The position numbers and the translations under genes were made by a program. From a virus (lineage: Duplodnaviria > Caudoviricetes): a DNA stretch of 25,446 nt. The notes under the pieces are model-generated. The model made no database searches and had not been told where the DNA came from. It saw nothing but the letters and a program-made list of their open reading frames with translations. The stretch covers positions 1 through 25,446 of IMG/VR virus record IMGVR_UViG_3300034062_003341; one strand, given 5' to 3'. Of this stretch, positions 3,575 to 22,481 are shown piece by piece (the stretch's first letter is position 1; every line of letters begins with the position of its first letter).

Positions 3575-3780
3575 GAAGCAACACCTACTATTACAACCTG
3601 AGCCGCGCCGCCGACAAGCAGAACCCTGAGCGCGAGAAGCTGGAAGCGCAAATAAAAGAGTACCTTGCAAAAGGCGGCAAGATCAAACATGTACCCCTCG
3701 GGGCCAGCGCGATGGGTCCGATCACGGATCACGAAACTTGCAAGAAGCTGGAAAAACTAAAAATATTTGGAGATGAATGA
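3571..3780 (+). CDS. SutA-like RNA-polymerase-binding-domain protein
   Basis: EREKLEAQIKEYLAKGGKIKHVP resembles the SutA core (EEFLSRGGKVQEI); ATGA coupling at both ends. Confidence 0.6.
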   Translation: MRSNTYYYNLSRAADKQNPEREKLEAQIKEYLAKGGKIKHVPLGASAMGPITDHETCKKLEKLKIFGDE

Positions 3781-3998
3781 TGGACGAGGACCTTATGAAG
3801 TTTGATGGCCTTGATGACGCAATTCTTGGCGTCGCCTGCCGTGCCGGTGGAGATCAGTTCTTTGTGTACTCACGAGCTGTCTGCATTAAGCTGTTGATGG
3901 CCCAGAACGACTGGGATTTTGAAGAAGCTGAAGAGTATTTCCAGTTCAACGTGGAGTGCGCTTGGATCGGTGACAGCACCCCAGCGTTCATGGAATGA
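3777..3998 (+). CDS. Conserved phage hypothetical protein (73 aa)
   Basis: DGLDDAILGV...VYS...EEAEEYFQFNVECAWIGDSTPAF is a pattern typical of a small phage family; GGAG SD; coupled at both ends. Confidence 0.8.
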   Translation: MMDEDLMKFDGLDDAILGVACRAGGDQFFVYSRAVCIKLLMAQNDWDFEEAEEYFQFNVECAWIGDSTPAFME

Positions 3999-6004: not shown

Positions 6005-6243
6005 CGCACCCTAAGCAATTGGAGTTACCGTTTACTGGGAGACACATCTTGAACGACAAACTCTTAACGCCAAAAGAACTCGCAGAGATGTTGCGGCTGT
6101 CACCCGAAACGGTGAAGGCGGACTGCCGTCGAGCCCCGGATAAACTTCCGCCCCGTTTCAAACGCCCCGGATCAAACCGTCTTTTGTGGCGACTGAGCGA
6201 TGTCGAAGAGTGGATCAATAAATATTCTGGAGATCCTAAATGA
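6001..6243 (+). CDS. AlpA/excisionase-like helix-turn-helix DNA-binding protein
   Basis: KLLTPKELAEMLRLSPETV...LPPRFKRPGSNRLLWRLSDVEEWI; ATGA coupling. Confidence 0.8.
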   Translation: MTHPKQLELPFTGRHILNDKLLTPKELAEMLRLSPETVKADCRRAPDKLPPRFKRPGSNRLLWRLSDVEEWINKYSGDPK

Positions 6244-6875
6244 GTTTTGTATGCCCGCTGCCACCGATCAAAGTCTTTGTGCGCTCTGAGTATTTGCAGG
6301 ACCACCTGCGCGGGCACGGCTCTTACGTTGAAGGGATCTGGTGCAGTGTAAAAAGTATACGCGGCCAGGCTTTTCGTTTTGAGACGTACCTGCCTGAGTA
6401 CGGCGCGTTGTATGACAAGCTGCCGATCAGCGCTTTTGCGTGGAAAGAAGCTATCGAGGACGACCAGCCGCTGGACGTGTTGCAGATCTGGGATTGCCTG
6501 GGGTACCACATAGAGGTGATCGAGAAGCCCCTGCTCGCTGGGCTCAGAGCCAGCGTATTCTGCAAGGACCGGGTCGCCCGAGAGGGTATCTACATGTTCA
6601 CACTTGATGGCGCGCAGCCAGACCCACGGGTGCCCGACTTCACGTTCACGCAAACCCCGGACGAGCACAAAAGCTACAACGTCATCCGGTTGGACAACGG
6701 GCAGTTTGCGCTACAGCCGAACAACCGTTGCCAGTTCTTTGACAACGCCTTTGTGCCGGAGACGTTGAAGACCCCGGACTTCGAGGTCTGCACGCACATT
6801 TACGCTGTCGAACACAAAAGCAAGTGGCGTCTGGGCGGCGATGTTAACTTTCGATACGAGACACCCGATCGTTGA
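6240..6875 (+). CDS. Conserved phage hypothetical protein (211 aa)
   Basis: Globular composition (VRSEYLQDH, GALYDKLPISAF, QIWDC, YMFTLD, EHKSYN, NGQFALQPNNR); ATGA coupling; last gene of the + block. Confidence 0.8.
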   Translation: MSFVCPLPPIKVFVRSEYLQDHLRGHGSYVEGIWCSVKSIRGQAFRFETYLPEYGALYDKLPISAFAWKEAIEDDQPLDVLQIWDCLGYHIEVIEKPLLAGLRASVFCKDRVAREGIYMFTLDGAQPDPRVPDFTFTQTPDEHKSYNVIRLDNGQFALQPNNRCQFFDNAFVPETLKTPDFEVCTHIYAVEHKSKWRLGGDVNFRYETPDR

Positions 6876-9800
6876 ACTGCTTCATCCTATTTGTGATCTG
6901 CTGCTCGATGATTTTCACGGACTCTCGCGAGGCTCCGCGCTCCACCATTTCTCTCTTGCGCTTGCGCAGATCCTGCACTTGGCGATAGACCCTGCTGGCC
7001 TGGGTGGCCAGCCGGGCGTCAGGGTTCTCGCGCAGATACTCCCCAGTGGGCTCCCGGCGCAAACGCCTGCCCTGCAGCTCGTTGTTGTGGACGTTCATCT
7101 TGCGGATGTTATCGTAGAAGGCACTGGCCTCTGCTGCACTGCCAGTGGTCTTGCCATACAGCCTGCCTGCCAACGGGATCTGGTAAGGCGGCAAGTCTTG
7201 CCCGGTCGCCAGCGCACTGATGGTCTGCTCAACCTTCATCGACTCCCGACCCACGCCTCCTGTAACCTGCCCTATCAGGTAATCCAACTGGTCCGGTGTG
7301 GGGCTAACCCCTCCCGGTGCAAAATCCGTCCCCCCTGAAGCCAGGTTCAAATAGTACGAAAGTTGGTTGCTGAACCAACTGGCGGTGTCCCTTCCCCGGA
7401 GGTAGCCGGGAGTTGGGTCCAGGCTGTTCAGATCCTCTCGCGCGATGGGGTTGCCCGTCCAGTCTCGGTTCTCCCACAAAGCCACAAAAGGGTCTGCCAG
7501 CGTGGGGGCAATAGTCTGCCCAGACCACCCTGCGTTGCCGATCGGGTTGAACATGTCGAAGAAGGCCGTCGTTATTTCGATCGCCCTCTCAGGAGTGTTC
7601 TCGAACCCGGACAGTGCCCACTCTGTGGCGATGCGGCTGGTGTTGGGGATCACGTTGAAACCCAAAGGCATCGGGATTGCGATGTAGTCTCCCCCGCCTA
7701 TCGGGATCACGATGTTGCGCTCGCGAATGAACTTCGGGGGCTCGTCTTCGCCGAAGCCAGCGGCAGCCATCATAAGAGCCTGTGCGGACCCCAGGAGCAG
7801 GCCGCCGTACATGATCTTCTTGCCGGCAGGGCCGGTCAGCGTCTCGGCCAGGCGGGCGGTACCTTGCACGGCGGCGTTGAAGAAAGCGAACAGCGCGCCG
7901 GCTTGCGTAGCGCGCTGCCCTTTCTTGTTGAAGTTGACCGTCAGGTTCTTGGCCATAGCCGCCGCACGGTCTTTGCTCATGCCGTTGTCCAGCCCCACCT
8001 TGTAGGCAGATAGCCGCACCGCGTTCTCCATGGCGGTGTTGTAGTCAGACAGCCAGTCGAGGACTGCGCGGCCGGCCTTCTTGGCGGTACCGTTGGTCAG
8101 CGCCTTGAGCTCTTTCTCCAGTGCCTCCTTGCGTTCCGTGCTCTGGCTGAACTGGTCTCTGAAACCCGTCTGCCCGCCTGCACCCTGGAACTCCTCCCAC
8201 AGCTGCGCCCACTGGCCGGTGCCGGCTCCTGTGCGCAGGTCCCTGTAGATCCCGTTTAGAGCCGGCAAAGTGTTGGCCAGCACTTGCGTCTTTTTGTTTG
8301 CGATCGGGGTAGTGGACAGGTTGAGCAAGCCGCCCTGCACGTCACGCGTGAAGTTGATCACGCCGAAGATAGGGTTGTACTGGGTGTTCACACTGGAGAA
8401 CCAGCGGGTCCCTTTAGCCGCTATGCTCATCGCCCGGCCAAGCTGGTCAGCGTCAAGGTTTTTCAGCGACAGGGCCATCCGCTCGGCCTGGGGGTTCTGC
8501 GGGTTCAGAATCAGGTAGCGATCCTTTCCGTTCACCCGTGTGGCGATTACGTTCGCGGAGCTGCGCAGGAAAGGGTTCACCCTCGAAGTCACCAGTCCCG
8601 TTCTGGGGTCAGGGTAGGTCTGCCTCGGTTCTTGCGCGATGTTGTTGGCTTCTATCGGATTGATCCCCATGCCGACCAGCTCAGCAGCCAGGGCCTGCGG
8701 GTTTTTAATTCCGTCAGGGTTAATCGGCAGCCAGAAAGAAGGCGACGGATTCTTCAGAGACAGACCGTATAATGCCTGGCTGACCCTGTTCTTCTCCGCC
8801 CGGACGATCGCCCTTTCGCGTTGCATTACGACGTTGGCCAGGATGTCCACGACCTTGCGGGTAGCTGAGCCAGTCGCACGCTTGGACGCGGACCCGCGCA
8901 CACTGACGCCTTGCCCCGTGCCCGCGCCTTGACCACTGAAATCGAAGTCAATCTCTTCGCGCATCAGGGGAACGTACTTACCGTACGCCCCTTCCCACGC
9001 GTCGATCGTGTCTTGGTTTTCCAGCCCAGCGTCCAGAAGAACGCGACGGGTGCCAGCGGTGATCGCATCGATCTTCCTGGCCAGGCCCTCCAGCGCCGCA
9101 CGGCGCGCTGCAGGCAGGGCCGCCATGTAGGCCTGGGCGTCAGCGGTAGTAATGCCAGAGCCCGCGTCAGGCAGCGCAGGATTGATCTTCGCAATGGCGG
9201 CGTTGCGCTCAGGAGCGTGGCGGTTGTGCAGGTATTGATCGAAGTCCTCGATCGAGACACTGTAGCGCCCCATGGCTTCGATCAGAGACTTGAGTTCAAT
9301 CTCCGCGAAGTCCTTGGTTTTGGTTGATACCTTGCCGTGGTAGAGCGTCTCTTGCAGGTACGGGTCCCACTTGTCGGCGATCTGACCGACCGCCTCGTTG
9401 ATGCTCTCCACCACCCGCTTCGTGTCAACCAGCTTGTCCTGCAGCTTGTAGATGGTGTCATCCAGCCGGCCTTGTTTGACTTGCCAAGCGGTAGCCGGTA
9501 GCGGTTTGCCGAAGATATTCTGCGCTCGGCTGAACATGGGCAACCCGGTGTCCATGACCTGGTCTTTCATTTCAGGCGTGATTGAGAAACCCCTCGCCTT
9601 GATCTTCTTGAAAGAGACCTTGGAACGGTACTCTTCGATGAGCTCATTTCTTTCGTCGGTCTCCAGCCCCCGCCAGTAAGCATCCTGCTCATCGGCGGGA
9701 ATGCCAAGCTCCGCCATGACCTGGTACCCCGTCGCCCAGCCTCTGGGGTCTCCAGGGACGTTGATTTCTACGGTCTCGACCTTTGTTCCGCCTATCTTTG

Positions 9801-12800
9801 GCAGCAGCTTGTTCAACGTCTTCGGGACGATGAAGTCGTAGAACGCTTTCATGCCCTCGCCGCCCACAGAAAGGCCTTCGCCGCTGATCTCCTTGGCTCT
9901 GAAGCGGCCACCCTTGGTACGGGGCTCTGCGTCCAGCAGCTTCTGTGCTACCTCTTTGCCGACTCTCTCGGCGATCTGTTCCGCAGAAGTTACCTTGCCG
10001 CTCACGTCGACAATCTCGTTGCCTTCCAGGTCGAAGACGGTCAAGTAGCCAGTAGAGAAGTCCTCCCCTTGGAGAGAGCTCAAAGGAGACTCAAGCTCTA
10101 TGGAGCTGACCTGCTGGGCCAGATCGTAATGCTTGGCGCTTTGCTCGCCACTGACGAAAGCGACCTTGTCGTAGCCTTGTTCGACGGCTATCGCGATGAC
10201 GCGCTTGAGCGCCAGGTTCAGCCACCCGCCTGTGGTCTGCACGAACGGCGCAGCGGGGACGGGTCTCCCGATAGCGGCGACTCCCACGAAAGACCCTTCC
10301 ATCCGAACGTAATCTTTTGCAACAGCTATCGCTTCTTCTTCGTAGCCTTCAACGGGTTTCACGCTGTAGACGTTTTTGACCAGGATTCCAGACTCGGTGG
10401 TAACTCTCCAGAAAAGATTGCCGTATTCGTCGTAGGCTTCAATTTTGGCGACCATAGGTTGGTCAAGCAGGTCCCCTTTCAGGAAGCCCTTCTCTCGGCC
10501 CTCCTGCCCCCAGTCAGACTGCAGCTCTTCGACGAACAGAACCTCATTGCCTTCGTCGTCGAGGCGGTCCTTGAGGCGGATGTGCGCCAGGACGTTTCCT
10601 TGTTCCCAATGGGTGTGTCGGTACAATGGGGCAGGGGTAGACCCGTCGGTATGCTTAACCGTCCCACCATATTCTCTTGCCAAAGAATCAAACCTGGCTC
10701 TTTCAGCTTGCGTAAGCCCTTCAAACACAACGACTTTTCGGTTTCCTGCTTCGTCTTCTATTCCGCCATAATCAAGGCTTTCAAAACCCTCCGCGCTTAA
10801 AGTGGTTAGGAAGTCGTCTACGGAATCTTCGTCAGAGAATGTGATTTCTCCCGCGTTCCCAGGAACAAAATCCGTGGGTAGCGTCAGCAGGATCTCGCGA
10901 TAGTTTTCTCCGCCGGGCACGGTGTACTTGCCGTACTTTGCGTCGCCGTCTACGCCGCGCGGCGTCCCGCCGATAGGCACCAAAGAAGTTGCAAAAGCCT
11001 CTTCTGGGTCTTCGCCGCTTTCTTCGAGCTCTTGTACCCAGTCGTCGTACGACATCTCATTGCCGTTAAACGGGCTTCGCCAGAAATCATCTGGGTACAC
11101 TTCGCCGGAGTTGCCGAGAACAACCTCACCGACCTGCACGCCATTCTCGGCCAGGAAGGTGGTGACCTGTTCACGCGTGATGGCGCCGGTCTGGGTGTCC
11201 AGCCAGTCTTCCACGCCGGACCACTCGATCTCTTCAGGGTTGATGCCCTTCTGGTTGCGCAGGAAACCTTTCCACTGCTGGGCCTGGCCTTTGGTTGGGC
11301 CTGCTTCAGCGGCGCGAGCCAGCGCGCTGTAGAGCTTGAGCGGGGACTTCTGCGCCTGGCTGAACCGGACATCCGGTATAGCAGGATCAAACGCCCCGGT
11401 GTTGCCGGTGGCGGATTTGACTTGCTCAGGACGGAAGGCGATGTAATGCGTAAGCGCTTTGTTTCCGCTGTCGATACGCTGGGCTATTACCCCGTCGAAC
11501 CCGGCTGCGATTGCATTCTCTTGCGCTGCAGCATCGCTAACAGGATTGCCGTCGTTATCTTTTCCAAAGCGTTTCCAGTAAGCCTCGACCCCTTCGGTAT
11601 AGGGGTTCTGCAAGCTCACATAAACCGGCATCGTGTTAAGAGGTGCTTGCTCAATATCCCGCGATCCCGCACCTACTGCATATTGGAAGGCTTCGCCAGC
11701 ATTATCTGTAGTGTAGATAGCTGGCCCAAACTCACCAATACGGGTCCGCTTAAAAACGTCAAAATCAGAAGCAGTGCCGTGGTACACAACCAGCGGCTCA
11801 CCGTCAGTATCAACCACCTTGCTGTCGCCGAACCAGCGCTTGAACGCAGGCGTGTCGGTCTGCGAGCGGCTGAACTGCGGCCCTCCCATTTTAGTGTAGC
11901 CGGTCTGGTCCAAGAGATAGAGCAGGTTTGTAGACTGCGACACGTCTCCGTCAGGACCGATAGTCTCCACATACACAACAGGGGTGTAAACCGTATCGTC
12001 GAACGTGTATTCAAATTCAGAAGATATAGGGTTCAGGCGGCCTGCAGGCTTGCGCATAGATGGCCCGACACGGGATAAGCTTTTAGCGATAACCCTATTA
12101 CGCCAGCGGCGCCCTCCCGCTCCCTGGGTCAAATACGTGTCTCCTACCTCTAGCCCCAGGAAACCCCCATCGGCGTCAACTTTACGAGTATTCTCGGCAC
12201 GGGTTTTAGCTGACTCTGACATTCGGGACCGGAAATCTTTAGAGAGCTTTCGCAGGTCCCGCATTTCACGGGCCTCGCTGATGTTGGTAACCCCGTCGTC
12301 GTCGCCCTGCTTACGGCTGAACGCCACGTCGCGCGCCACGATACCCCGCGAGTCAACGGCACGCTCTTCATCAAAACGCCGCGCTTCGGTCAAGGGGTAC
12401 AGAAACTTTGTGCTGCCGGGCTTGATGTCAAACGCTGAGCCCTCTGGCACCAGGTGCTCAGGCTCGAGCTCGCGGAACTCTTGCTCGTCGACCTTAATTG
12501 GCTCACCTATTTTTACCGAACCAATAAGACGGGCGGGTCCTTCTCCGGTGCGAATAATTCCAACTGTCTGGCCAACGTACGCACGCAGACTGTTGGTGTT
12601 GCGCGACTCCATGGTCTTCTCGCCATCCACAATCAAATCGGCATAAAGGTTATCGCCGTCGTTGCGAACATTGATCCCGCGTTGCGAGCGGCTAAAACGA
12701 AAATCCTCTTTGTTACCGTACACTGGGTTCTTAGCAAGAACGAGTGGGCCCACCTGGATTGCTTCGTCAGCAGACACGACTGGCTCGCGCGTGGCGCGGT

Positions 12801-15800
12801 CGTAGAAGTACGCGTGCCGGGTAGGGTCCATACCTACCTGCACCCAGTTCTTTGAACCCATAGCAAGCTTGGCAGCAGCAGCAGCTTGCTTAGGAGTGCT
12901 TGGTTTCCAGTCGCCCTTCATTACCGCGATGGTGGCTTTCGGTTTCCCGGAGGCGATGTTGAGCGCTGCGCTTTCAACGACGCCAAAGGTAGGGTTTGTC
13001 ACCGAAGCTACGCTCTCGTAACCGATCGACTTGCCGGCAGCAAAGCCTGGGATCTGATCGTGGACAGAGACGACCCACACGCCGTGGTTGGCGTAGGCCG
13101 GAATGTCCAGGCGCAGACCGACCGGGTCTCCGGCCTTAAGCGTTTTACTGGGCACGCCGATTCGATCAAGTTTGTCAGACGTCAACGCGCGTTGGATGTC
13201 AGCAGGCTTTGCTGGCTCCGGAACCTCGGTGTACGGGGTCACCGGTTTAATTGCATCTACAAGCTCGCTGTACTCAGCGCTCGTAACCGTTCCTTCCTTC
13301 ATCCCCTGAGCGGCTTGCTCGAGACGTGGATCTCTGGCCAGAACGTCGCCTTGCTTACGGCTGAACTTCGGTGTCAAACGCTCCATCTCACGGTTTTGCA
13401 GAGCTACCGCACGGTCGTAATCGTTCAGAACTCTGCCGTCTTTAGAGCTGTACTCGGCGTCCGTCTTGCTTGGGTCGTAAACCATGAAGACAACGTCTGG
13501 CTCGCCGTTGTTAAAAGGTCGGAACGTATCTTTGTCCCATTCGGTAGGGGCGAACTCGTCACTCCATTTGGTGCGAGCTACCGCTCGGAAGCCATGCGGA
13601 GCGTAGAACTCTGGGAGGATTGTGTCGAAAGCGTCCAGCTTGCGGCCGCCGGCAGATACCGCCAGCTCCATGATTGCACGGCCAGCGCCGCCGGTGCTGA
13701 ACACCGAGACGATGTCGCCGTCAAGTTTGATCGCCACGCCAGACTTGCCGTCTTTGGTCAAGAACATGCGCATAGCCTGGTAGTCTTCGGCCGGGTACAC
13801 GTTGACCTCAGCGCCAAACTTCAGGGTCTCTTTGTTCTCAGAAACCGCTTGCCGGAACTTGGTAGCGTTTTCAAGCGTAGATGCCAACTCGAAAAACTCA
13901 GGAGTGGCCAGGTCGTTGGCGCGGAATACCGTGCCGAGGTCTCGACCGGCTTTCCACGTTTGGGTGTAAGTGACACCCAGAGTCTTTAGAAGCCGAACTC
14001 TTCCGCCATTTGCTCCGCCGTCTCCCGCGTAAGCCCCGGATTGTTGCGCATCGCCCGCTCGATTGGCCCGAGATCGGAGGACCGCGCGTTCGCCAATGAA
14101 CTTCCTTCTTCCCTGGCGAGTAAAGCCTCCAGGCGCTGCCTGCTCCCCGGCTCCAACAGCTTGCCCTTGCGTATCGCTGCTTGCAGCTGCAGGTCGTGCT
14201 CTTCCTGATCGCTCATCTTCAACCCTCTTCAGTGCGGCGTTAATACGCCGATCGGTGATTCCTTTTTCACGAGCCACAGACGCCGCTGCGTTGGCGTAGT
14301 CTGGCGCGCTGTCATCAGCGTACCCTTCTACATCCTCATCAGTCTCCAGCCCCTGCGGATCTTCTTTGGCCGTCTCATACAAACGCTTTTCAGCATACCA
14401 TAAAACGGCTTGTAAGTCTGCCATTGTAAGGTCTTTGTACGCATCTGTCTGCCTTAAGTCGTCTAGTATGTCACCAAACACCGCACGAATGTACTTTCTT
14501 TCGTCTGGGTTTTGCGGGGCTTCTTTCTGCCCATCAAGGTATTTTGCCAGGCTGTTGCCGGCTTTACGAAGCTCCTGCCCAACCTCTGTTTTGTTAAGCG
14601 CAGAACGGATCTTTGGGTCCATAGAAGCAATTTGAACCGCGCCAGCCAGTGCGTTTACGTCGTCGGTAATCTCTTCGCCGAGCAGAGCGCTGAGCCGTTT
14701 GGCTTCAGCTGGGTCTGCCAGAACCAAACGCACGGTGTTTTGTAGCCGCGCGCGCGCTTTGGCCGTTTGCTCCGGCATGGCTTTGATCAGAGTACCGGTC
14801 CAGCGGCCCCATGTTCGGATCAGCCAACGGTCCATGGTCAGGCTGTCAAAGTTGCCGTACAGATTGGAGAAGAAACCGTTGCCGATCTTTGGTCCAAGGA
14901 TTGCGGCACCTTTTACAATTACTTCTGAGTGTTCACCGCTTGGCTTAAGCGCTTTGCTGATCCCGCTGATTTCGCTGACAGTGAAGTTGGTCTGCATGAA
15001 ATTACGCAGGCTATCTATGCCCCACTCGTTGCGAAGCGTGTTGAACAGATCCAGTGCGTCATTTATTTTTGAGCCCGCTGTGCCTACTCCGACATTGTTT
15101 GGCATGACCCCGGTGCGCTTGTACTCGCTGTACGCTCTTTCAGCCAGCTGAAAGTTCTTGCCGACCTTGAGGCCGTTGGATGTGACGGCCAGCGCCCAGG
15201 TAAAAGCAAAGCGGGCGTTTTCATCGCGCGCGATCTCAGGGTGTACCAAAGACATCACAGCCAACGCCTGCCGAGTCTTGGTGTCGTACCAGCCAATGGC
15301 GTTTGCGTTTTGTTTGAGCGCGGCGATGGCGTCACGCAAACCTACTTCCAGCAAATATCTTCTAGTTTTTGGAGTGTCTTGCGTGGTGTCGATTCCTTCA
15401 GCCATGCCGGCGTCGAGTACCTGGCGCTGCAGTGCAACTTTAAAATCTCGCCCGCGTTGCCAGTCTTGAGACCTGGCCAGTTTACTGGCAGCGTCAAGAG
15501 AAGACGTGTCAACCAGGGGCTGCGTACGGCTGAACGCCGGAGCGGCACCTTGCGCAGGAGCAGCAGGAGCAGCAGGAGCAGCAGGAGCCTGGCCACTGGC
15601 CTTGCGGTAATTGATCAGCGCGCTCTGGGCGACCATCTTGGCCTTGTTCAGATCGCGGATGTACGTGTCGACCTTGGCGGATTCGGTCTTGCTGCGGTTC
15701 TTGGCGCCGCGCAGAGTGACCAGCAAATTGTCGATGGCAGCCAGCCAGCGCTTAACAAAGCTTTCGAAGCCGGTCGGGTCTGCTTTGGCCAGGTCCTTCC

Positions 15801-18726
15801 AGAATTTCTTGTCCGTGGCGCGATTGCCCAGGAAGTCAGCGACCATCTCGCTGCGCAGTTCAGGATCTTGCAGCAGCTCTTGCATGCGCGTTTCACGGGC
15901 ATCGCCTTCAAGGGCAGACAGTTCATCAACGGCGATAAAGTTTTCAAGGTACGCGCGCTTGCCTTCTTCGGTGATGTCGTCAAAGACGCTGTCGATCTGT
16001 TCGACAAACTCCTGAGCGGGCGTGTCCGTCATCCCGGCTGCGGTCTCGGCCTTGGCAATCTGCTCCACCGTGTGCTTGAACTCATGCAAAGCGGTGCGCT
16101 GCACGCCGGCTTGGTTGCCACTCACGTTCACGTAAGCGACTTTGCCAATTGCTACGCCGTTGATGGCGCCTGGGCGCGGGTCAGAGAAAGCAACAACCCG
16201 ACCTCCCCACTGGCTGCCGATCAGATCTGTAATCTCAGCTACGCTGGCTTCGAGCTCGGGAGAAGCGGCGTTAAAGGCGACTGGGCTATTGGTGCCTTGG
16301 GAAGCTGCCCAGGTGTCCATAGCCCGCTGAGCAGTTGCTCGCGCTGCGTCTCCGGCAGACTGTCCAGCCACCGGTTGAGCGGCCACGTTAGACACCGGCG
16401 CTGGGATACTAATGAAGTTTTCATCTGTAACTGTCTCCTGTACTTGCGGGGCCGGCGGTATCCGTCGAGCGCGCAGTTCTACTTCTGCACCACGTCGAGT
16501 GACAGCCGGCACAGTGTTGTTTGAAATAAGAGTTTCGAGATCCGTTTCCGAATACAACTCGGTGGCCTTGCCGAGAAGCTTGGTTGGGCGAGGAACCTCG
16601 ACGCGAGGCGCCGCTGTTTGTGCGGCTGGGGTGCGCGCCTGTACCGGGCCGACGGTGCGGCCATAGACTTCGGCGGCTCTTTGCAGGGCGGCGGTCTGCA
16701 CAGGGCCAGGTTGGGCACCGCGTGCCATGGCCAGGTTGGCATTAAAATCTTCACGGTCTTGCACTTCCATGCCACGGGTGTCGGCCGACATCAGGGCGTC
16801 GAGGCTCGGAGCGGCTGTGCGGGTGCGCTCTTGCGGCAAATCCTGCGCGCGTGCGATAGCCTCCTGGGGCGTGACGCTTGGCAGCGGCTGCTGCACCGGG
16901 CCGACTGTGCGGCCGTAGGTCTCAGCTGCGCGCTGCAGCGCCTGTTCGCGCTGTACGGGCAGGTTTGCTGTACGGGCGGCGGTAAGGTCGTCCAGGAACT
17001 CCTGCCGCTCTGGCGCGGGCATCGTGGAGATGTCGGCCTGCGTCAAGGTCTCGAGTGTAAGGGTCGGCGCCATGGCTTGAGCCAGAAGGCCCTGGCCCTG
17101 CGGCGCTGCAGTGCTGACTCCAGGAACGGCGGTGCTGACTCCAGGAACGGTGGTCACAGGGGCGACAGCACTGGCCACGGGGGTGGTGGTGCCAATGCCG
17201 GCTTCGCGCTCCAGCGCTTCGATGTCTGTGTCGACCATGTCAGAAGCGGCTTGGACCGCATCAGCGGCAGAGGTGGCTTCGTTAAGGCGCTGCTCTGCTG
17301 CGACTTTGATCTTGAGATTGTATGCCGTGCCGAGCGCTTCAGGGTTACGGACGTTGTTTACCAGGAACTCCAGCTCAGCCTTTTCGTTGTCGCTCAGAAA
17401 CTCTGCCGGACGGCCTGGAGAAATAACGGTTTGCCCAGTCGTAGGGTCCACGATTTCAGTGGCAGCTGTGCCTTTGCCTTTTGCGGTAAGCTCTTCCAAA
17501 CGTGTGCGCGCGAAGGCAGTGGCCTGTTCTGGCGACACTTCCGCTGGCGCTGGCGGGGGGTTACCAAACTTCAGAACTTCGTCTTCAGCAGGGCGCTGTT
17601 GGTCTCGCGCGGATCGCAAGCCTGCGCTAACAAATTTCTTACCCAGCGCGGGCACTTCAACGATTGCACCGCCTGCTTCACCAAGCATTTCAAGCGCAAC
17701 GGCTTCCAGGTCAGCTTCTCCGTAAGCAGCAATCTGGCCGGCGGTCTCGCCTACGCCAGCGCCGGCCACGTCGACCCCGTAACCCTTGGCGCCGGCAACC
17801 AGCTTTTCAGAAAACGGCAAAGCGTCGAGGTTGCGTTGGACCAGGGCGTTGACGTCTGCGCCTGTCTCAAGTGCTTCTTTGGCCGCGGCTGCCACTGTTG
17901 CGCGCATAGGCGCTGATGAGATCCGGCCTCCGAGGATGCTGGTTGCGGCGTCGACCGCTGCCACGGTGGTGCCTTTTATCCTCGCCTGGCTGGTAGCGGT
18001 ATCGCGGAAGGTCTTGTCTTGCAAAAGAGCGTTGATGTTTTCTTCGGTAGGTTGGAGTCCTCGAGCAGCCAGTTCGCTGCTTACGATCCCCATGAATTCG
18101 GCTCCAATCTCCATGGGAGCAGAAGCCGCAAAAGCGCCCATTACGCCGCCCACGGCGGTGCCAATACCTGGCGTTACAACGGTGCCAGCAGCCGCGCCGC
18201 CCATCCCGCCCAAAAGAGTCGGGACCATGTTGGCAGCTTGCTCGGCCGTAAAGTAGGCCATCCCGCGCGGGTTCGTGACGAGCTGTTTGCCCATTTCGAC
18301 GGCGGTTCCGCCAATTGCGCGAAGGCCCTGCGACGAGTACCAGTTCTCCGCTTGCGCCATCATCTCGGCTTCGTCTTTGAAAGCCCCAGCTACTTCTTTC
18401 AACTCTTCAGGTTGATACCGTTCAGTTGTCAGGTTTTTAGCAATGAGCCCGGCAGTGCCCTCTACGTCGCCAGCGATTACCTGCGGGCCAACTTGATAAG
18501 AGCTGACAGCCTGTTCAGCGCCTTGCTTGAACAGCGTGCCGACGTTTTTAAAGAAACCTGGCTCTTCTTCCGGCTGTGCCGGCGTTGGCGCCATGTTGAG
18601 AGCGGCGTCAAAATCTGCGCGATCAATCTTCCCCGCGTAGTATTTGGAATACAAAGAATCAGACAACTCTTGGTCGGAGAGGTTGCTGTACTGGGGATAC
18701 TTCGCGCGGAAATCGTTAAGACGCAT
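6844..18726 (-). CDS. Giant (3960 aa) polyvalent protein, probably virion-ejected: zincin-like, HhH-like, GNAT-like, ASCH, ART-like and LPD38-like domains
   Basis: Uninterrupted 11.9-kb ORF with an AGGAG SD. Motifs: HEFKH (aa 881-885); GPKIG..TMDRW; GAGRAIMELAV..KLDAFD..FYAPHGF; GEKTMESR; VYHGT..GPAIYTT..GFDGVI; VEELQSDW; NLTVNFNKKG..FFNAAVQG..IPMPLGF..ENRDWTGNPI. Last gene of the internal-virion cluster. Confidence 0.9.
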   Translation of the reverse strand: MRLNDFRAKYPQYSNLSDQELSDSLYSKYYAGKIDRADFDAALNMAPTPAQPEEEPGFFKNVGTLFKQGAEQAVSSYQVGPQVIAGDVEGTAGLIAKNLTTERYQPEELKEVAGAFKDEAEMMAQAENWYSSQGLRAIGGTAVEMGKQLVTNPRGMAYFTAEQAANMVPTLLGGMGGAAAGTVVTPGIGTAVGGVMGAFAASAPMEIGAEFMGIVSSELAARGLQPTEENINALLQDKTFRDTATSQARIKGTTVAAVDAATSILGGRISSAPMRATVAAAAKEALETGADVNALVQRNLDALPFSEKLVAGAKGYGVDVAGAGVGETAGQIAAYGEADLEAVALEMLGEAGGAIVEVPALGKKFVSAGLRSARDQQRPAEDEVLKFGNPPPAPAEVSPEQATAFARTRLEELTAKGKGTAATEIVDPTTGQTVISPGRPAEFLSDNEKAELEFLVNNVRNPEALGTAYNLKIKVAAEQRLNEATSAADAVQAASDMVDTDIEALEREAGIGTTTPVASAVAPVTTVPGVSTAVPGVSTAAPQGQGLLAQAMAPTLTLETLTQADISTMPAPERQEFLDDLTAARTANLPVQREQALQRAAETYGRTVGPVQQPLPSVTPQEAIARAQDLPQERTRTAAPSLDALMSADTRGMEVQDREDFNANLAMARGAQPGPVQTAALQRAAEVYGRTVGPVQARTPAAQTAAPRVEVPRPTKLLGKATELYSETDLETLISNNTVPAVTRRGAEVELRARRIPPAPQVQETVTDENFISIPAPVSNVAAQPVAGQSAGDAARATAQRAMDTWAASQGTNSPVAFNAASPELEASVAEITDLIGSQWGGRVVAFSDPRPGAINGVAIGKVAYVNVSGNQAGVQRTALHEFKHTVEQIAKAETAAGMTDTPAQEFVEQIDSVFDDITEEGKRAYLENFIAVDELSALEGDARETRMQELLQDPELRSEMVADFLGNRATDKKFWKDLAKADPTGFESFVKRWLAAIDNLLVTLRGAKNRSKTESAKVDTYIRDLNKAKMVAQSALINYRKASGQAPAAPAAPAAPAQGAAPAFSRTQPLVDTSSLDAASKLARSQDWQRGRDFKVALQRQVLDAGMAEGIDTTQDTPKTRRYLLEVGLRDAIAALKQNANAIGWYDTKTRQALAVMSLVHPEIARDENARFAFTWALAVTSNGLKVGKNFQLAERAYSEYKRTGVMPNNVGVGTAGSKINDALDLFNTLRNEWGIDSLRNFMQTNFTVSEISGISKALKPSGEHSEVIVKGAAILGPKIGNGFFSNLYGNFDSLTMDRWLIRTWGRWTGTLIKAMPEQTAKARARLQNTVRLVLADPAEAKRLSALLGEEITDDVNALAGAVQIASMDPKIRSALNKTEVGQELRKAGNSLAKYLDGQKEAPQNPDERKYIRAVFGDILDDLRQTDAYKDLTMADLQAVLWYAEKRLYETAKEDPQGLETDEDVEGYADDSAPDYANAAASVAREKGITDRRINAALKRVEDERSGRARPAAASSDTQGQAVGAGEQAAPGGFTRQGRRKFIGERAVLRSRANRAGDAQQSGAYAGDGGANGGRVRLLKTLGVTYTQTWKAGRDLGTVFRANDLATPEFFELASTLENATKFRQAVSENKETLKFGAEVNVYPAEDYQAMRMFLTKDGKSGVAIKLDGDIVSVFSTGGAGRAIMELAVSAGGRKLDAFDTILPEFYAPHGFRAVARTKWSDEFAPTEWDKDTFRPFNNGEPDVVFMVYDPSKTDAEYSSKDGRVLNDYDRAVALQNREMERLTPKFSRKQGDVLARDPRLEQAAQGMKEGTVTSAEYSELVDAIKPVTPYTEVPEPAKPADIQRALTSDKLDRIGVPSKTLKAGDPVGLRLDIPAYANHGVWVVSVHDQIPGFAAGKSIGYESVASVTNPTFGVVESAALNIASGKPKATIAVMKGDWKPSTPKQAAAAAKLAMGSKNWVQVGMDPTRHAYFYDRATREPVVSADEAIQVGPLVLAKNPVYGNKEDFRFSRSQRGINVRNDGDNLYADLIVDGEKTMESRNTNSLRAYVGQTVGIIRTGEGPARLIGSVKIGEPIKVDEQEFRELEPEHLVPEGSAFDIKPGSTKFLYPLTEARRFDEERAVDSRGIVARDVAFSRKQGDDDGVTNISEAREMRDLRKLSKDFRSRMSESAKTRAENTRKVDADGGFLGLEVGDTYLTQGAGGRRWRNRVIAKSLSRVGPSMRKPAGRLNPISSEFEYTFDDTVYTPVVYVETIGPDGDVSQSTNLLYLLDQTGYTKMGGPQFSRSQTDTPAFKRWFGDSKVVDTDGEPLVVYHGTASDFDVFKRTRIGEFGPAIYTTDNAGEAFQYAVGAGSRDIEQAPLNTMPVYVSLQNPYTEGVEAYWKRFGKDNDGNPVSDAAAQENAIAAGFDGVIAQRIDSGNKALTHYIAFRPEQVKSATGNTGAFDPAIPDVRFSQAQKSPLKLYSALARAAEAGPTKGQAQQWKGFLRNQKGINPEEIEWSGVEDWLDTQTGAITREQVTTFLAENGVQVGEVVLGNSGEVYPDDFWRSPFNGNEMSYDDWVQELEESGEDPEEAFATSLVPIGGTPRGVDGDAKYGKYTVPGGENYREILLTLPTDFVPGNAGEITFSDEDSVDDFLTTLSAEGFESLDYGGIEDEAGNRKVVVFEGLTQAERARFDSLAREYGGTVKHTDGSTPAPLYRHTHWEQGNVLAHIRLKDRLDDEGNEVLFVEELQSDWGQEGREKGFLKGDLLDQPMVAKIEAYDEYGNLFWRVTTESGILVKNVYSVKPVEGYEEEAIAVAKDYVRMEGSFVGVAAIGRPVPAAPFVQTTGGWLNLALKRVIAIAVEQGYDKVAFVSGEQSAKHYDLAQQVSSIELESPLSSLQGEDFSTGYLTVFDLEGNEIVDVSGKVTSAEQIAERVGKEVAQKLLDAEPRTKGGRFRAKEISGEGLSVGGEGMKAFYDFIVPKTLNKLLPKIGGTKVETVEINVPGDPRGWATGYQVMAELGIPADEQDAYWRGLETDERNELIEEYRSKVSFKKIKARGFSITPEMKDQVMDTGLPMFSRAQNIFGKPLPATAWQVKQGRLDDTIYKLQDKLVDTKRVVESINEAVGQIADKWDPYLQETLYHGKVSTKTKDFAEIELKSLIEAMGRYSVSIEDFDQYLHNRHAPERNAAIAKINPALPDAGSGITTADAQAYMAALPAARRAALEGLARKIDAITAGTRRVLLDAGLENQDTIDAWEGAYGKYVPLMREEIDFDFSGQGAGTGQGVSVRGSASKRATGSATRKVVDILANVVMQRERAIVRAEKNRVSQALYGLSLKNPSPSFWLPINPDGIKNPQALAAELVGMGINPIEANNIAQEPRQTYPDPRTGLVTSRVNPFLRSSANVIATRVNGKDRYLILNPQNPQAERMALSLKNLDADQLGRAMSIAAKGTRWFSSVNTQYNPIFGVINFTRDVQGGLLNLSTTPIANKKTQVLANTLPALNGIYRDLRTGAGTGQWAQLWEEFQGAGGQTGFRDQFSQSTERKEALEKELKALTNGTAKKAGRAVLDWLSDYNTAMENAVRLSAYKVGLDNGMSKDRAAAMAKNLTVNFNKKGQRATQAGALFAFFNAAVQGTARLAETLTGPAGKKIMYGGLLLGSAQALMMAAAGFGEDEPPKFIRERNIVIPIGGGDYIAIPMPLGFNVIPNTSRIATEWALSGFENTPERAIEITTAFFDMFNPIGNAGWSGQTIAPTLADPFVALWENRDWTGNPIAREDLNSLDPTPGYLRGRDTASWFSNQLSYYLNLASGGTDFAPGGVSPTPDQLDYLIGQVTGGVGRESMKVEQTISALATGQDLPPYQIPLAGRLYGKTTGSAAEASAFYDNIRKMNVHNNELQGRRLRREPTGEYLRENPDARLATQASRVYRQVQDLRKRKREMVERGASRESVKIIEQQITNRMKQFNDRVSRIES
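9520..15534 (-). repeat. Seven dispersed copies of TTYAGCCRNNNGCAR encoding F-S-(R/Q)-x-Q at module boundaries
   Basis: Copies at 15520-15534 (FSRTQ), 13351-13365 (FSRKQ), 12682-12696 (FSRSQ), 12307-12321 (FSRKQ), 11860-11874 (FSRSQ), 11350-11364 (FSQAQ) and 9520-9534 (FSRAQ). Confidence 0.9.
13986..14216 (-). CDS. Candidate nested (+1 frame) 76-aa gene inside the giant ORF
   Basis: AAGAGGG SD-like site 6 nt before ATG 14216. The product MSDQEEHDLQLQAAIRKGK...IERAMRNNPGLTRETAEQMAEEFGF looks helical, while the main frame here is an R/G/A-rich low-complexity linker. Confidence 0.6.
   Translation of the reverse strand: MSDQEEHDLQLQAAIRKGKLLEPGSRQRLEALLAREEGSSLANARSSDLGPIERAMRNNPGLTRETAEQMAEEFGF
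15554..15589. repeat. 9-bp tandem repeat x4 (GCAGGAGCA) encoding an Ala-Pro-Ala linker
   Basis: Three perfect units plus one with a single mismatch; encodes APAAPAAPAAPA just before the first FSR motif. Confidence 0.9.
16635..17070 (-). repeat. Internal duplicated ~60-aa unit (84-aa period) in the giant protein
   Basis: ALQRAAETYGRTVGPVQ and ALQRAAEVYGRTVGPVQ lie 252 bp apart; the upstream halves also align loosely. Confidence 0.85.
17111..17152. repeat. 21-bp tandem duplication encoding VPGVSTA x2
   Basis: gtgctgactccaggaacggcg followed by gtgctgactccaggaacggtg. Confidence 0.85.
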
Positions 18727-18744: not shown

Positions 18745-19425
18745 TTAGAAAAGACCCAACGGATCAGCGGCACCCGAAGACCGTCCAAGCAGTCTTTCTG
18801 CGTCGCGTCTCAAAGGAGCTATCTTTGCATCGAAATCTTTTATGACCGGGTCGTCGATTTCGTAGCCCCGCTCAATAGCCTCTGAACGGTCTTTTTGGTA
18901 CGTATTGATCTGGGACTGGATGAATTCCAGTTCTGCCTCCACGCGGGGGTCGAGACGCGTCTGCGTACCCTCCAGGTCCTGCAGCTGGCGGCTGATCTCT
19001 GCTCGCTCAGGGGAACCCTCAGGCGTTGCCGACAGCATCCGACGCAGAGTGCGTACATGTTGCTCGTCGCCAAGCAGCCCTCGCGTACGCTGTTGCTCCA
19101 GTTTCTGCCCCGCCGTTTCGGTGGCAGCGAGCTGTTGTTGGATAAGCCCTGGGTACGCACTGCCTTCTCCGAATCTACGGGACAGGATCGCCTCGTCGGA
19201 GGCTGCGATCGCTTCGGCTTGACGAGGTATGTTTGCCAGATTGCGCTCTTCAGCCGCAATGTTACGGGCTTCTGTGCGACTTTCAGCGGCCTCGGCCAAG
19301 CGGGCGCGCATCTCTTCTTCGGCCTCCATCAACGCTTTGCGGGAGTTGACTTCAATCTGGCCAGCGGCCACTTCGCCAACGCCTTTCGACACGCCTCCAA
19401 GAACTGACGCAATCAAGCCCCTCAT
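18745..19425 (-). CDS. Putative internal virion/ejection protein (226 aa, coiled-coil)
   Basis: Gly-rich amphipathic N-terminus, helical E/R/Q-rich body, ends ADPLGLF; directly upstream of the giant gene; ATGA coupling. Function inferred from position. Confidence 0.65.
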   Translation of the reverse strand: MRGLIASVLGGVSKGVGEVAAGQIEVNSRKALMEAEEEMRARLAEAAESRTEARNIAAEERNLANIPRQAEAIAASDEAILSRRFGEGSAYPGLIQQQLAATETAGQKLEQQRTRGLLGDEQHVRTLRRMLSATPEGSPERAEISRQLQDLEGTQTRLDPRVEAELEFIQSQINTYQKDRSEAIERGYEIDDPVIKDFDAKIAPLRRDAERLLGRSSGAADPLGLF

Positions 19426-19838
19426 GCCGCCACCCCCTGCCCAAGGGCAGCGTCAAATTCAGAACGGTCTTCTCCGAAGCCTTCGAACAGCGAGTCGATC
19501 AAGACCTCCATCGCCCGTCCTATTTCCTCATCAGACACCTGGCCTTTTCCAGACTGGTTTACAAAGTCTGCGGCCTTGAGCAACAGGATCATTGCCGCTG
19601 GGACGATCACGTCCTGCGGCATTGTGCCGTTGGACTCGTTGAAAAGAAACACAACTACCTTAGCAATGCCCTGGCCCAGCTTGGTCGCTGTGTCCCCTGG
19701 GGCGCTCAACTGTTGCAGCATAGCGTCGTGGGTTTGTTTCGAGAACAGCACTTTCATGCCGGCAGCCACTACGCGTGCGTAGGCGTCCTGCATTTCAGGC
19801 GGCAACTGGATATTGTTTTGAACGTCATCTATGTTCAT
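19422..19838 (-). CDS. Hypothetical protein of the virion/ejection cluster (138 aa)
   Basis: Coupled by ATGA overlaps on both sides; helical composition. Confidence 0.75.
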   Translation of the reverse strand: MNIDDVQNNIQLPPEMQDAYARVVAAGMKVLFSKQTHDAMLQQLSAPGDTATKLGQGIAKVVVFLFNESNGTMPQDVIVPAAMILLLKAADFVNQSGKGQVSDEEIGRAMEVLIDSLFEGFGEDRSEFDAALGQGVAA

Positions 19839-20575
19839 GCAGGCACCCCCGGCATGTTCTGGCTTAAAAGGCCTGTCGGTTTAAGAGAGGTGTTGACCGA
19901 GAGGTAACCCTGGTTTAGGTTCTGCCGGCGACGCTTTTCGTCATCAAGCGCTTGCAAAGTCTGTTGCGCGTTGGCGTCGGTGTTGCGGATTTGAGATTTC
20001 AGTAGATCAATATCCGCGTCCGTTTTACCGCTCAGGTAACTAGCCAGCTCAGTGCCACCGGCTGCCAGGATCTGCGCCACCTCGGGGTTGTCTCTCACCA
20101 GTCCTGCGCCAGTCTTCAGCGCGCTCCCCGCTGCCGTCACGCCTTTCTGGAACAAGCTGGGCGGCGGTGCGGGTGGCACCAAGCCGCTGGTCGCTTGAGT
20201 AGCAATTTGGCTTCGAAGCAGGCCCCCGCTAGTCTGCGCTGCTGATTGGTAGCCGCCGGCTGCTGCGTTGAGCGGGCCTCGTCCTTGCATAGCTTGGCGA
20301 GTAAAAGTTTGGCCAGCCGGGGCAGCGTAAGCCGTGGCCGCGGTCTTAGCCGCTTGACTCATGCCCAGCGTTTTGGCTCCGGCACCGAACGCGCCCATGG
20401 TCCCAAGGCTGCCAACGGTTCCCACCACCGCGCCAATCTTCATCAGCTTTTCGTTTTTGGTTACCGCACCGACAGCTGACATCGCCGTACCTGCGATAGC
20501 CAAGCTTTTCATAACCCCGGCTGCGGCGACGGCGCCTTTGACTGCGCCGGCGACTGCTATTACGGCTGGTGGCAT
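19835..20575 (-). CDS. Putative DNA-ejection/pilot protein (246 aa, Ala/Gly-rich hydrophobic N-terminus)
   Basis: True start is probably ATG 20575 (MPPAVIAV) after a GAGGAG SD, not 20662. It follows the GNAT-like gene, matching the gene order of podovirus ejection modules. Confidence 0.65.
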   Translation of the reverse strand: MPPAVIAVAGAVKGAVAAAGVMKSLAIAGTAMSAVGAVTKNEKLMKIGAVVGTVGSLGTMGAFGAGAKTLGMSQAAKTAATAYAAPAGQTFTRQAMQGRGPLNAAAGGYQSAAQTSGGLLRSQIATQATSGLVPPAPPPSLFQKGVTAAGSALKTGAGLVRDNPEVAQILAAGGTELASYLSGKTDADIDLLKSQIRNTDANAQQTLQALDDEKRRRQNLNQGYLSVNTSLKPTGLLSQNMPGVPA

Positions 20576-20576
20576 A

Positions 20577-20933
20577 TCAGTTCTCCTCTCTTCGCTCCCA
20601 CGGCAACGTGCTGAGCAAGTAGTATTCAAAGTCACTATCGTTCCAGGTGGGTTTAAAGCCAAGCCTTCGAACGAACTTTTTTGTCTTACCCATGGCCCTT
20701 GGCACGCGGGTGGTCAACATGCCAAAGCGATCAAACACGGGTTCCAACATTTCTCGAACTGCTTTTCTGACGCTACCCGCTGGCCGCTCTATGAGCGCGA
20801 AATGCACTTCCATGCCTTTGACGATCAGTGTACCAGCATGCTTGCCAGCAAGCATCAACGGCACAGGCTCCCACCCTTCAAGAGTTTCAAGTGGCAACCC
20901 AATCGGAGCAAGCAGTTCCTCGCGCGTCATCAA
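20577..20933 (-). CDS. GNAT-fold virion assembly protein (P22 gp14/T7 gp13-like)
   Basis: EVHFALI...MLTTRVP...KFVRRLGFK pattern; position immediately before the ejection genes. Confidence 0.6.
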   Translation of the reverse strand: MMTREELLAPIGLPLETLEGWEPVPLMLAGKHAGTLIVKGMEVHFALIERPAGSVRKAVREMLEPVFDRFGMLTTRVPRAMGKTKKFVRRLGFKPTWNDSDFEYYLLSTLPWERREEN

Positions 20934-22471
20934 ACACCGTACTTGGTGCGGATGTCGTCCATGCTGTTGACTTGGCCCTCAGAGATCAGCCTGTAAGCTT
21001 CACTTACCGCTTGATCGGGTGTGAGGCCAAAGCGACTTGCGGCCAGTCTAAGCTCCCCCAGATCCTCTTCGGTAAGGCCGCCAGGGTTGGTCTGCGCGGG
21101 CGGGGGCGGTGTGACCGTTGCGGCCGGGGGCGTTGCGGCCGGGGGCGGGGTGACCGTTGTAAACGTGACCAGTTCTTTCAAGCCGGTTACCTGGCTTGCT
21201 TTTTCCAGGAACGTAAGCGTTTCGTTAAGCGATTGTTTTTGTTGGTCTACCGCGGCTTGCTTCGCCTCTGGGCTGAGCTCTGTGTCCGCCATAATCTTGG
21301 CAATGCTCTCGGTGGTCTTTTGGAATATGTTGGTCGCTTGCTCAGTCACTCTGGCGCGTTCGTTGAGTTTTTGAAGGTCTTTGTCAGCGGTGATCAAACG
21401 GTCATTTTCAGTGCGTCGATTGGCAGCGTCCGCTGCGAATCGATTGGCGTCATTCGTGGCTTGTATCGCCAGTTGCGCCGCCCGTTGAGAATCTGCCGTC
21501 GCGTCTCTGGCCGCAGCGTTGGCGTCGGCAACGGCTTGAACGCCAACCGCGTTCTTAGCCTGCGCGAGGAAAGCCGCAGCGTTGTTCTTTGCCAGTGTCG
21601 ATGCCGCAGAAGCCTGGTTGGCCGCTTCTGTTGCAGAGCGCGCGGCGTCATTGAGCGCGGCGGCGTTGTTTGCAGCCGCAGCGTTGTTTGCGTTGGCCAA
21701 GAACTCTGCGGCGCTATTGAGCACGCGCTGGTTGTCAGCCTTGGCGGCGTTGGCGGACTCAGCGGTAAAAGCCGCTGCCGCGTTTATTTCTCTTACGTTG
21801 AACTGTGCCAGGATGTTTGCTTGTTGCGCGTTGACCTCAGCGGCCCTGAACATAGTGCCGGCGTCAGTGGTGGCGATGTCTCGAGCGCTCTCTGTTACTG
21901 CACGCAACGCCTCGCCTTCTGCCATGCTGGAGCTGAGCAGCCCCTTGGCGGCCATCCCCTGTCGAGCCTTGGTCTCTTGCAAAGTCAGCAGGGGCGATCC
22001 TTTCTTGAGCAGCCCTTGAATCCGATCCTCGACCAGTTGATCCGGTGTTACGTTCAACGTGGTCAGAGCCGCCTGCTTGGCGTCGTAAGTCTGGGAGTCG
22101 CGTTTAATCGCGTCAAAGCCCCCAGGCTTGTACTGCGTGGCCGTATACCCTGCTGAGGTGTACGCCTCCGGGGTGTACCCCAGTGCGTCGGCTGTTTTTG
22201 TAGCCGCTGGCGTTGCACTGGAGAAAGGCGCAGAACTGACAGGCGTGTAGCCGCTGGGCGCGGTCAGGCTGGGTGCGGGCTGCGCGTTTTTAGCGCTTAG
22301 CTTTTCAGTCGCTATTCTGCGCAAGTCGGTCATGTTGGCGGCTTGGCCGGAGACAAGAAACTGGTTCGCTTCTGCCAGGCCTGCTTCTGGGGTCATGTTG
22401 AATTGAGATGCCAGGTTGCGGATCTCTTGTTGTTCAGAAGCGGTCATCTGATACGGGTTTGTAACGGCCAT
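20930..22471 (-). CDS. Ala/Asn-rich virion-associated protein (~513 aa) with homologous N- and C-terminal mini-domains
   Basis: ATG 22471 lies 6 nt after TAAGGTG (the track uses GTG 22480). Contains GMAAKGLLSSSMA, a long A/N/Q coiled-coil and Pro-rich linkers. Confidence 0.75.
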   Translation of the reverse strand: MAVTNPYQMTASEQQEIRNLASQFNMTPEAGLAEANQFLVSGQAANMTDLRRIATEKLSAKNAQPAPSLTAPSGYTPVSSAPFSSATPAATKTADALGYTPEAYTSAGYTATQYKPGGFDAIKRDSQTYDAKQAALTTLNVTPDQLVEDRIQGLLKKGSPLLTLQETKARQGMAAKGLLSSSMAEGEALRAVTESARDIATTDAGTMFRAAEVNAQQANILAQFNVREINAAAAFTAESANAAKADNQRVLNSAAEFLANANNAAAANNAAALNDAARSATEAANQASAASTLAKNNAAAFLAQAKNAVGVQAVADANAAARDATADSQRAAQLAIQATNDANRFAADAANRRTENDRLITADKDLQKLNERARVTEQATNIFQKTTESIAKIMADTELSPEAKQAAVDQQKQSLNETLTFLEKASQVTGLKELVTFTTVTPPPAATPPAATVTPPPPAQTNPGGLTEEDLGELRLAASRFGLTPDQAVSEAYRLISEGQVNSMDDIRTKYGV

Positions 22472-22481
22472 ATTATTCACC

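Follow-up and report, generated by a model that had tools for sequence, protein, structure and literature searches.

A repeated seam in a giant phage polyvalent protein is a DNA crossover point and a candidate self-cleavage site

Introduction

Why should one phage protein carry the same short motif seven times, at the borders of unrelated domains? The question is raised by a stretch of viral DNA (Duplodnaviria; Caudoviricetes) of 25,446 nucleotides, IMG/VR record IMGVR_UViG_3300034062_003341, referred to in its entirety as the window. A single minus-strand open reading frame (ORF) at 18726-6844 encodes a giant protein of 3960 amino acids (aa), and the region studied here (9520-15534) is the middle of this ORF. 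A preliminary description had noted the motif FS[RQ]xQ and proposed that it is a cleavage site. The explanation that we favour, and consider reasonably probable, is a dual-purpose seam: the 15-nucleotide coding sequence is a site of cassette exchange, and the peptide is likely an F|S cut site for the protein's own zincin-like domain.

The giant protein is confirmed as an LPD38/ART-PolyVal polyvalent protein, the family to which it had first been assigned. Besides the ORF itself and PHROG matches, Pfam profiles detect LPD38 (E 1.7e-39) and ART-PolyVal (E 1.9e-26) in the whole protein, together with weaker ASCH and L5 gp82 matches, and every one of these falls within a single interval between motifs. 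Several disparate domains of the polyvalent set (LPD38, ART-PolyVal, ASCH and a HExxH domain) are joined in one large polypeptide, and the neighbouring genes encode a DNA polymerase, an exonuclease, an annealing protein and an endolysin, a phage context. Relatives of the C-terminal domain (C-domain) occur in 341 phage records; they account for 1125 of 2007 scored candidates, and the best 120 were studied. The metagenome runs that hold the stretch are from lake and other freshwater sources.

Results and Discussion

Seven copies of the motif

The motif starts at aa 1065, 1788, 2011, 2136, 2285, 2455 and 3065 (nt 15534 down to 9520) and separates segments of 1064, 723, 223, 125, 149, 170, 610 and 896 aa. 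This count, the starts and the lengths were reproduced as originally described. The seven copies compare with 0.038 expected and with a maximum of two in 10,000 shuffles, and the six copies of FSRxQ alone (p 1.6e-13) beat the best 3+1 pattern of each of 200 shuffles (lowest 2e-7). At the nucleotide level TTYAGCCRNNNGCAR occurs in seven exact copies, all on the minus strand and all in frame. A single further hit, on the plus strand, has one mismatch; in all, 1.37 hits are expected at up to one mismatch.

The motif holds as a domain seam, in that domains are bracketed by it and cassettes are swapped at it in relatives. Residue composition around the seams is no more disorder-prone than that of the cargo as a whole. 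Two or more domains share the 723-aa interval, with PHROG matches at 1316-1401 and at 1618-1748, and only a degenerate FTRQ at aa 1535 lies between them. This FTRQ (nt 14124-14110), in the middle of cassette E, retains its F in 11 of 14 rows and was never seen to act as a swap point. An FSQ at aa 3526 belongs to the conserved C-terminal domain and marks no seam; in the form RDQFS[QR]S (nt 8151-8137) it is conserved in the C-terminal domain of many relatives, where the letters of the seam are present with no junction.

The motif as a DNA crossover point

The motif is demonstrated to be a DNA crossover point for cassette exchange between related phages, a role that the preliminary description had overlooked. 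Cut at the motif, the window reads as the cassette string E-D-I-F-C-B-A, where A is the C-terminal part (all coordinates of seams, domains and cassettes given below are on the minus strand). Nineteen relatives cut at a broadened motif, with cuts missed in the more distant P0008-P0022, give E-D-J-F-B-A, G-L-F-C-B-A, L-D-I-C-B-A, G-D-C-B-A, G-D-F-J-C-B-A, G-D-I-C-C-B-A and others. BLASTP matches to the window have 148 of 354 endpoints at most 15 aa from a motif (10% expected), many of these being the start of the C-terminal domain at seam 7 (FSRAQ, aa 3065; 9520-9534). In an all-against-all comparison of 148 proteins, FSR is the most enriched breakpoint 3-mer (105 of 1585, against 18.1 at random with a maximum of 29); the majority of breakpoints lie elsewhere, since lineages other than this one have different seams or show gradual divergence. 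In a set of nine close genes the boundaries of shared nucleotide blocks fall within a few bases of the motif, seam 3 (FSRSQ, aa 2011; 12682-12696) being one such block boundary among relatives. Between the window and the related locus L018 the boundary of a 93% block lies at -4 to +14 relative to the motif.

Public contigs record the same exchange within natural populations, in which cassette F (aa 2136-2284; 11875-12321) varies in presence and absence. A joint at 11866-12314, with 9 nt that fit either side, skips 447 nt and stays in frame, joining the motif at aa 2136 (seam 4, FSRKQ; 12307-12321) to that at aa 2285 (seam 5, FSRSQ; 11860-11874). At 88% likeness the skip is present in two of four runs, X7 and X9, and at 95% in three of four, X7, X8 and X10; altogether four freshwater runs carry it. 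The shorter side of the joint is 30 letters, one below the bridging rule, and the identical join is found in the assembled L018. The same runs also have cassette-carrying contigs at similar depth (17.9, 15.9 and 8.5 against 18.5, 8.9 and 5.5). At seam 2 (FSRKQ, aa 1788; 13351-13365) the contigs of three of four runs depart from the window at 13367, two bases outside the seam. Cassettes are gained, lost and replaced with breakpoints in a direct repeat, which is microhomology cassette shuffling. The two roles proposed for the seam support each other. A cassette gained through recombination at the motif keeps the frame and is flanked on arrival by sites that the resident peptidase would read.

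Selection on the peptide

Comparison of codons indicates that the motif peptide is also under selection, beyond that on the DNA. In 34 close copies nothing changes beyond the third positions of codons, the fourth codon, which is free, and R, which is exchanged for Q. Across 28 sites in 17 distant loci, serine is encoded by AGY in 15 and by TCN in 13. At the Ser position of 126 fused ART ends (ART being the ADP-ribosyltransferase-like domain of cassette C), Ser is commonest (69 examples, 42 AGY and 27 TCN), with Gln in 23 and Ala in 11. A residue kept across disjoint serine codon families is not expected of a pure DNA scar.

A zincin-like domain precedes the seams

The sole HExxH of the protein is at aa 881-885, ahead of the first motif as had been noted, and lies in a domain spanning aa 791-1043 (15598-16356), with HExxH encoded at nt 16086-16072 and the third ligand, E960, at nt 15849-15847. 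H881, E882, H885 and E960 are invariant in all 36 aligned relatives, and of a further 100 relatives 99 retain HExxH. An AlphaFold2 (AF2) model of aa 780-1090 (28 sequences, mean pLDDT 79) opens with a helix and three strands, which are followed by the HExxH helix and, further on, by another that bears E960, in the order H44-61, E64-69, E78-81, E84-88, H93-117 and H176-187. The modelled domain has the features of a zincin, namely HExxH on a helix with a downstream Glu ligand, a three-stranded sheet, a helix at the N-terminus and a pair of helices at the C-terminus, and motif and topology together suggest the zincin-like assignment. Seam 1 (FSRTQ, aa 1065; 15520-15534) falls in a linker modelled at low confidence (pLDDT under 50 over aa 1053-1090). 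Burial of the motifs in domain cores would speak against a processing site; at seam 1, the seam covered by the model, the motif is not placed in a core.

Seam-like sequences are concentrated on one side of the peptidase. There are eight occurrences of [FY]SR in 32,454 aa upstream of HExxH and 105 in 60,016 aa between HExxH and the C-domain. In the 100 further relatives [FY]Sx[RK], a pattern picked after seeing the data, has 17 occurrences over the 79,110 aa that lie upstream of the peptidase and 238 over the 146,702 aa that lie downstream, homologous sites being included in all these counts.

Long relatives of the peptidase, 101 in number among proteins P0153-P0270, carry an LPD38-type C-domain in the same chain in only 28 cases. 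Fifty have a Cys within the last eight residues, and 23 of these end 62-81 aa past the last seam motif; the Cys-ended proteins look like split forms.

Seam motifs differ between peptidase clades

Peptidases were assigned to classes by clustering HExxH and HExxxH contexts, and the seam patterns were read from the data. The motif [FY]SR occurs 92 times in 29 of 33 class 1 proteins and 48 times in 28 of 44 class 0 proteins. Q[FYL]ALP goes with class 7 (18 copies in six of six proteins, none in 128 others), [DE]INx[SAM] with class 4 (14 copies in 10 of 13 proteins, two in 121 others), and [FY]Q[RQK][DE] with class 2 (21 copies in 12 of 27 proteins), in which FSR is absent. Classes 3 and 10 have no clear seam motif. 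One and the same module can take either ending: cassette D ends in FRFSRSQ in the window and in FQFALPQ in the class-7 protein P0114, at 57-59% identity. Conversely P0068 and P0072 are 94% identical in the N-terminus, 85% in one cargo and 95% in the C-domain, whereas their peptidase and seam differ.

These patterns raise a broader proposal, which we regard as somewhat short of probable. LPD38-type giant proteins may be effector polyproteins that are programmable through a protease-to-seam code, in which clades read FSR, QxALP, DINxS or FQRE. The seam codons would be the recombination site, populations would reshuffle injected effectors cassette by cassette, and the resident protease would release any newcomer at an X|S-type bond.

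Where a cut would fall

A cut is predicted between F and S. There are 29 short ART-PolyVal proteins, 25 with a readable tail, and six of these stop exactly at the equivalent of F2455, the first residue of seam 6 (FSQAQ; 11350-11364). If 25 to 40 positions were equally likely, six in 25 at one position would have a probability of 0.009 to 0.001. The last residues of the six stand-alone ARTs are F, T, G, H, A or K at the protein level. Among 144 ART tails in viral loci, ten stop within 130 codons, and one of them (L186) has TAA at the F-equivalent position. At class-1 ART ends Ser is kept and F varies, which together with the stand-alone stops at F points to the X|S bond. For the cleavage site first proposed, these ends, the intact catalytic residues and the clade-linked seam are favourable.

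Evidence against self-cleavage and alternative explanations

Self-cleavage at the seams, which we hold to be somewhat likely, we infer from comparison, and a number of results weigh against it. The AF2 model leaves motif 1 unplaced, outside the active site, and a Foldseek search returned no match at E up to 0.001, with zincins among the weak rows. The peak of stop codons may mark merely the end of the ART fold. The F position is loose, being Q, K, M, R or A at the ART ends of several class-1 proteins. Peptidase and seam are physically linked, and homogenization by recombination alone could explain part of their co-variation.

Phylogenetic tests of that co-variation are mixed. Of 8 independent pairs that set class 4 against DIN on the C-domain tree, built from 116 proteins, 6.2 go the same way and none the opposite way (median p 0.03, range 0.016-0.06), the p of ~0.03 being one of five uncorrected tests. 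Class 2 gives p 0.125 and class 0 with PAAxR gives 0.25, and class 7 provides one pair. On the same tree the pairing of classes 0 and 1 with FSR is unsupported, 2.0 pairs going the same way, 1.0 the opposite way and 4.0 showing no difference. A tree of 40 ART domains, fewer than half of the listed ART ends, yields no significant pairing, class 4 contributing three of three pairs.

Of the other explanations, the one that survives best is that the peptide is read but is not cut by the built-in domain. It could serve as a tag for docking or handling, recognized by the zincin-like domain, by a packaging partner or by an unfoldase, or a separate phage or host protease could cut it, and the chain may stay whole and tethered. 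This would account for conservation of the peptide without cleavage, and precedents exist: in the available text of two reports, the N4 virion RNA polymerase (vRNAP) is packaged unprocessed (PMC5512222) and, although it has a HExxH domain, is treated as a full-length, anchored chain (PMC13434306). The accessible part of the phi24B report assigns the metallopeptidase to peptidoglycan (10.64898/2026.04.10.717836). However, if a host protease were responsible, a change of motif upon a peptidase swap alone, as between P0068 and P0072, would be surprising; the catalytic Glu and third ligand are invariant; and the motif often stands directly after class-0 peptidases. We consider this explanation unlikely, though it deserves to be kept in mind.

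A recombination scar is less probable still. In this case a 15-nt microhomology would be copied with each insertion and homogenized by repeated crossover, and the peptide would be a tolerated linker. The crossovers do map at the motif. Each of the 34 close copies has AGC for Ser, a sign of DNA-level constraint or recent copying that also counts against the favoured explanation, and the three YSR seams of Stx2 phage 86 gp35 (at 1439, 1670 and 1870) are all written TCC CGT. However, the copies vary at synonymous positions, different lineages write one FSR with disjoint Ser codons, and the seven exact DNA copies share one frame. At the distant loci, the Ser codon class agrees within a gene in just 9 of 13 pairs, against 6.9 expected.

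The weakest alternative, that the motif is a structural cap ending each domain while the peptidase targets the host envelope or host proteins, finds some favour in the ART tail NxGxFDPxxPDI, conserved right up to the motif, and in the peptidoglycan degradation proposed in the accessible part of the phi24B paper (10.64898/2026.04.10.717836), but it is very improbable given that the motif is common to unrelated cassettes, that one cassette takes different motifs on different backbones, that the stand-alone ARTs end at the F position with any of six residues, and that motif 1 lies in a low-confidence linker.

If the seams are self-cleaved, the steps may be pictured as follows. The giant protein is probably packed in the virion and ejected, by analogy with relatives such as the LPD38-bearing phi24B gp47, which according to the available text is abundant in virions and a proposed ejection protein (10.64898/2026.04.10.717836). 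The zincin-like domain would refold and cut at every seam, most likely after ejection, as the chain refolds in the host. Once free, the cassettes would act separately on the defences or the machinery of the host. Crossovers would be driven by the exonuclease and annealing protein of the phage, as candidates for microhomology recombination.

Comparison with known systems

MuF and other polymorphic toxins have swappable effector modules in which one C-terminal tip is swapped, whereas the giant protein has five serial internal cassettes, each exchangeable. RNA-virus polyproteins process themselves at a repeated site, with gene order fixed.

The general idea of self-processing is already published. 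In the available text of Iyer et al. 2017, the metallopeptidase (MPTase) of polyvalent proteins is proposed to process the protein into functional units (PMC5512222). The phage-type polyvalent proteins described there are, like that of the window, large and multidomain with a zincin-like MPTase, ART-PolyVal and LPD38. In contrast, the accessible text gives no cleavage motif ('RFS', 0 hits), no co-variation of motif and peptidase and no cassette exchange at fixed seams; its alignments may show such tails (PMC5512222). The DNA crossover role of the motif is new here.

The closest virion parallel is that of phi24B gp47 and Stx2 phage 86 gp35, whose C-terminal domain is ~30% identical and which share LPD38 and a metallopeptidase; according to the accessible text they differ in cargo (LPD5, LPD1) and in the role that the authors give the peptidase (10.64898/2026.04.10.717836). 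The N4 vRNAP (gp50), as far as the available part of the report goes, is likewise a ~3500-aa ejection protein of beads on flexible linkers with a HExxH domain, but works as a whole chain with one RNA polymerase as cargo and no repeated seam described (PMC13434306). The fused virion cargo gp65-gp66-gp67 of crAss-like phages (phi14:2 preprint, available text) is described as 'likely cleaved', with a zincin-like domain as candidate, but the cargo is unrelated and there is no named site and no cassette shuffling (10.1101/2020.03.07.982082). The accessible parts of PMC9144972, PMC9503650 and PMC9024508 hold nothing further on cleavage sites. In the literature searched, with most subscription papers and supplements outside the search, no description was found of the motif, of peptidase-specific seams or of cassette exchange there.

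The named residues turn the 2017 proposal of self-processing into a test, with E882, seven F|S bonds and predicted fragments of 112, 79, 24, 14, 17, 18, 67 and 98 kDa. The seams also provide a rule by which candidate counter-defence effectors can be delimited within many giant phage proteins that lack annotation, and a route by which a phage can vary its injected payload inside one population. If the code is true, pairs of peptidase and seam could be usable as orthogonal site-specific proteases.

Organization of the protein

The N-terminal region (aa 1-790; 16357-18726) has no seam motif, one hydrophobic stretch near aa 183 and, as to family, only a weak 30-aa PHROG hit. An internal repeat of ~130-200 aa lies at aa 555-754, before the peptidase, where two overlapping matches to the same relatives are seen.

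Cassette E (aa 1065-1787; 13366-15534) follows seam 1 and contains two domains with conserved residues, one with a weak match to PHROG 38712 and the other matching PHROG 2563 (E 5e-19); in relatives it is replaced by other cassettes. The first domain may resemble HhH-GPD glycosylases, and the second may be GNAT-like. Cassette D (aa 1788-2010; 12697-13365) is L5 gp82-like, below the Pfam cut-off, and matches PHROG 586; as described above, the same module ends in QFALP in peptidase class 7.

Cassette I (aa 2011-2135; 12322-12696) holds the ASCH domain and is a separate segment in 3 of the 19 relatives cut at the motif, as well as in P0012 by BLAST. It had been stated that the ASCH and ART-like domains each fill almost exactly one interval. 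For ASCH this stands in weaker form: PF04266 reaches 23.9 bits against a cut-off of 21.2 only in a scan restricted to the 125-aa interval, and the match covers positions 7-71 of the 103 in the profile. A 21-nt in-frame insertion directly after seam 3 (window 12677) is present in one low-depth contig of run X5, and cassette I of L018 is 7 aa longer. Cassette F has no match in Pfam, PHROG or NCBIfam scans.

For ART the statement is borne out. Cassette C (aa 2285-2454; 11365-11874) matches the ART-PolyVal profile PF18760 (E 1.5e-28; 100.7 bits against a cut-off of 31.2) over its whole length, at aa 2306-2446, inside one interval. H2316 of this ADP-ribosyltransferase-like domain is invariant in 47 rows; position 2427 is variable, being His in the window and most commonly Glu, in only 11 of 47. 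In L002 there is an internal deletion of the ART cassette near aa 2347, which leaves two seam-like motifs 11 aa apart.

Cassette B (aa 2455-3064; 9535-11364) has conserved residues and weakly matches part of a long PHROG profile, with no named family in profile scans. A block at aa 2704-2743, HW-x3-N-x-LAH-x-R with E-x-QSDW, is conserved in 28 proteins and is catalytic-looking, with no family name. The conserved C-terminal domain (aa 3065-3960; 6844-9534) includes LPD38 at 3661-3852 and a hydrophobic stretch near aa 3638. Its closest cultured relatives are L016 (Methanosarcina virus MetMV) and L015 (Bacillus phage Dartukuta), at 43-46% identity; their hosts, as labelled in the records, are archaeal and Gram-positive, respectively. 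In Dartukuta, gp57 carries FSR at 2616 and 3306.

Genome context

The exonuclease and single-stranded DNA-binding/annealing genes are located at 643-2378 on the plus strand (PHROG 69, E 4e-118; PHROG 112, E 5e-44). Upstream of the giant gene, at 18745-22480 on the minus strand, are four genes encoding proteins of 226, 138, 275 and 516 aa. They have no NCBIfam hits and no or marginal PHROG matches; judged by position, they are likely further virion or ejection proteins. A gene matching PHROG 3704 ('ferredoxin'; 6240-6875, plus strand) converges on the stop of the giant gene, and a 2OG-Fe(II) oxygenase gene is located at 24662-25318 on the minus strand.

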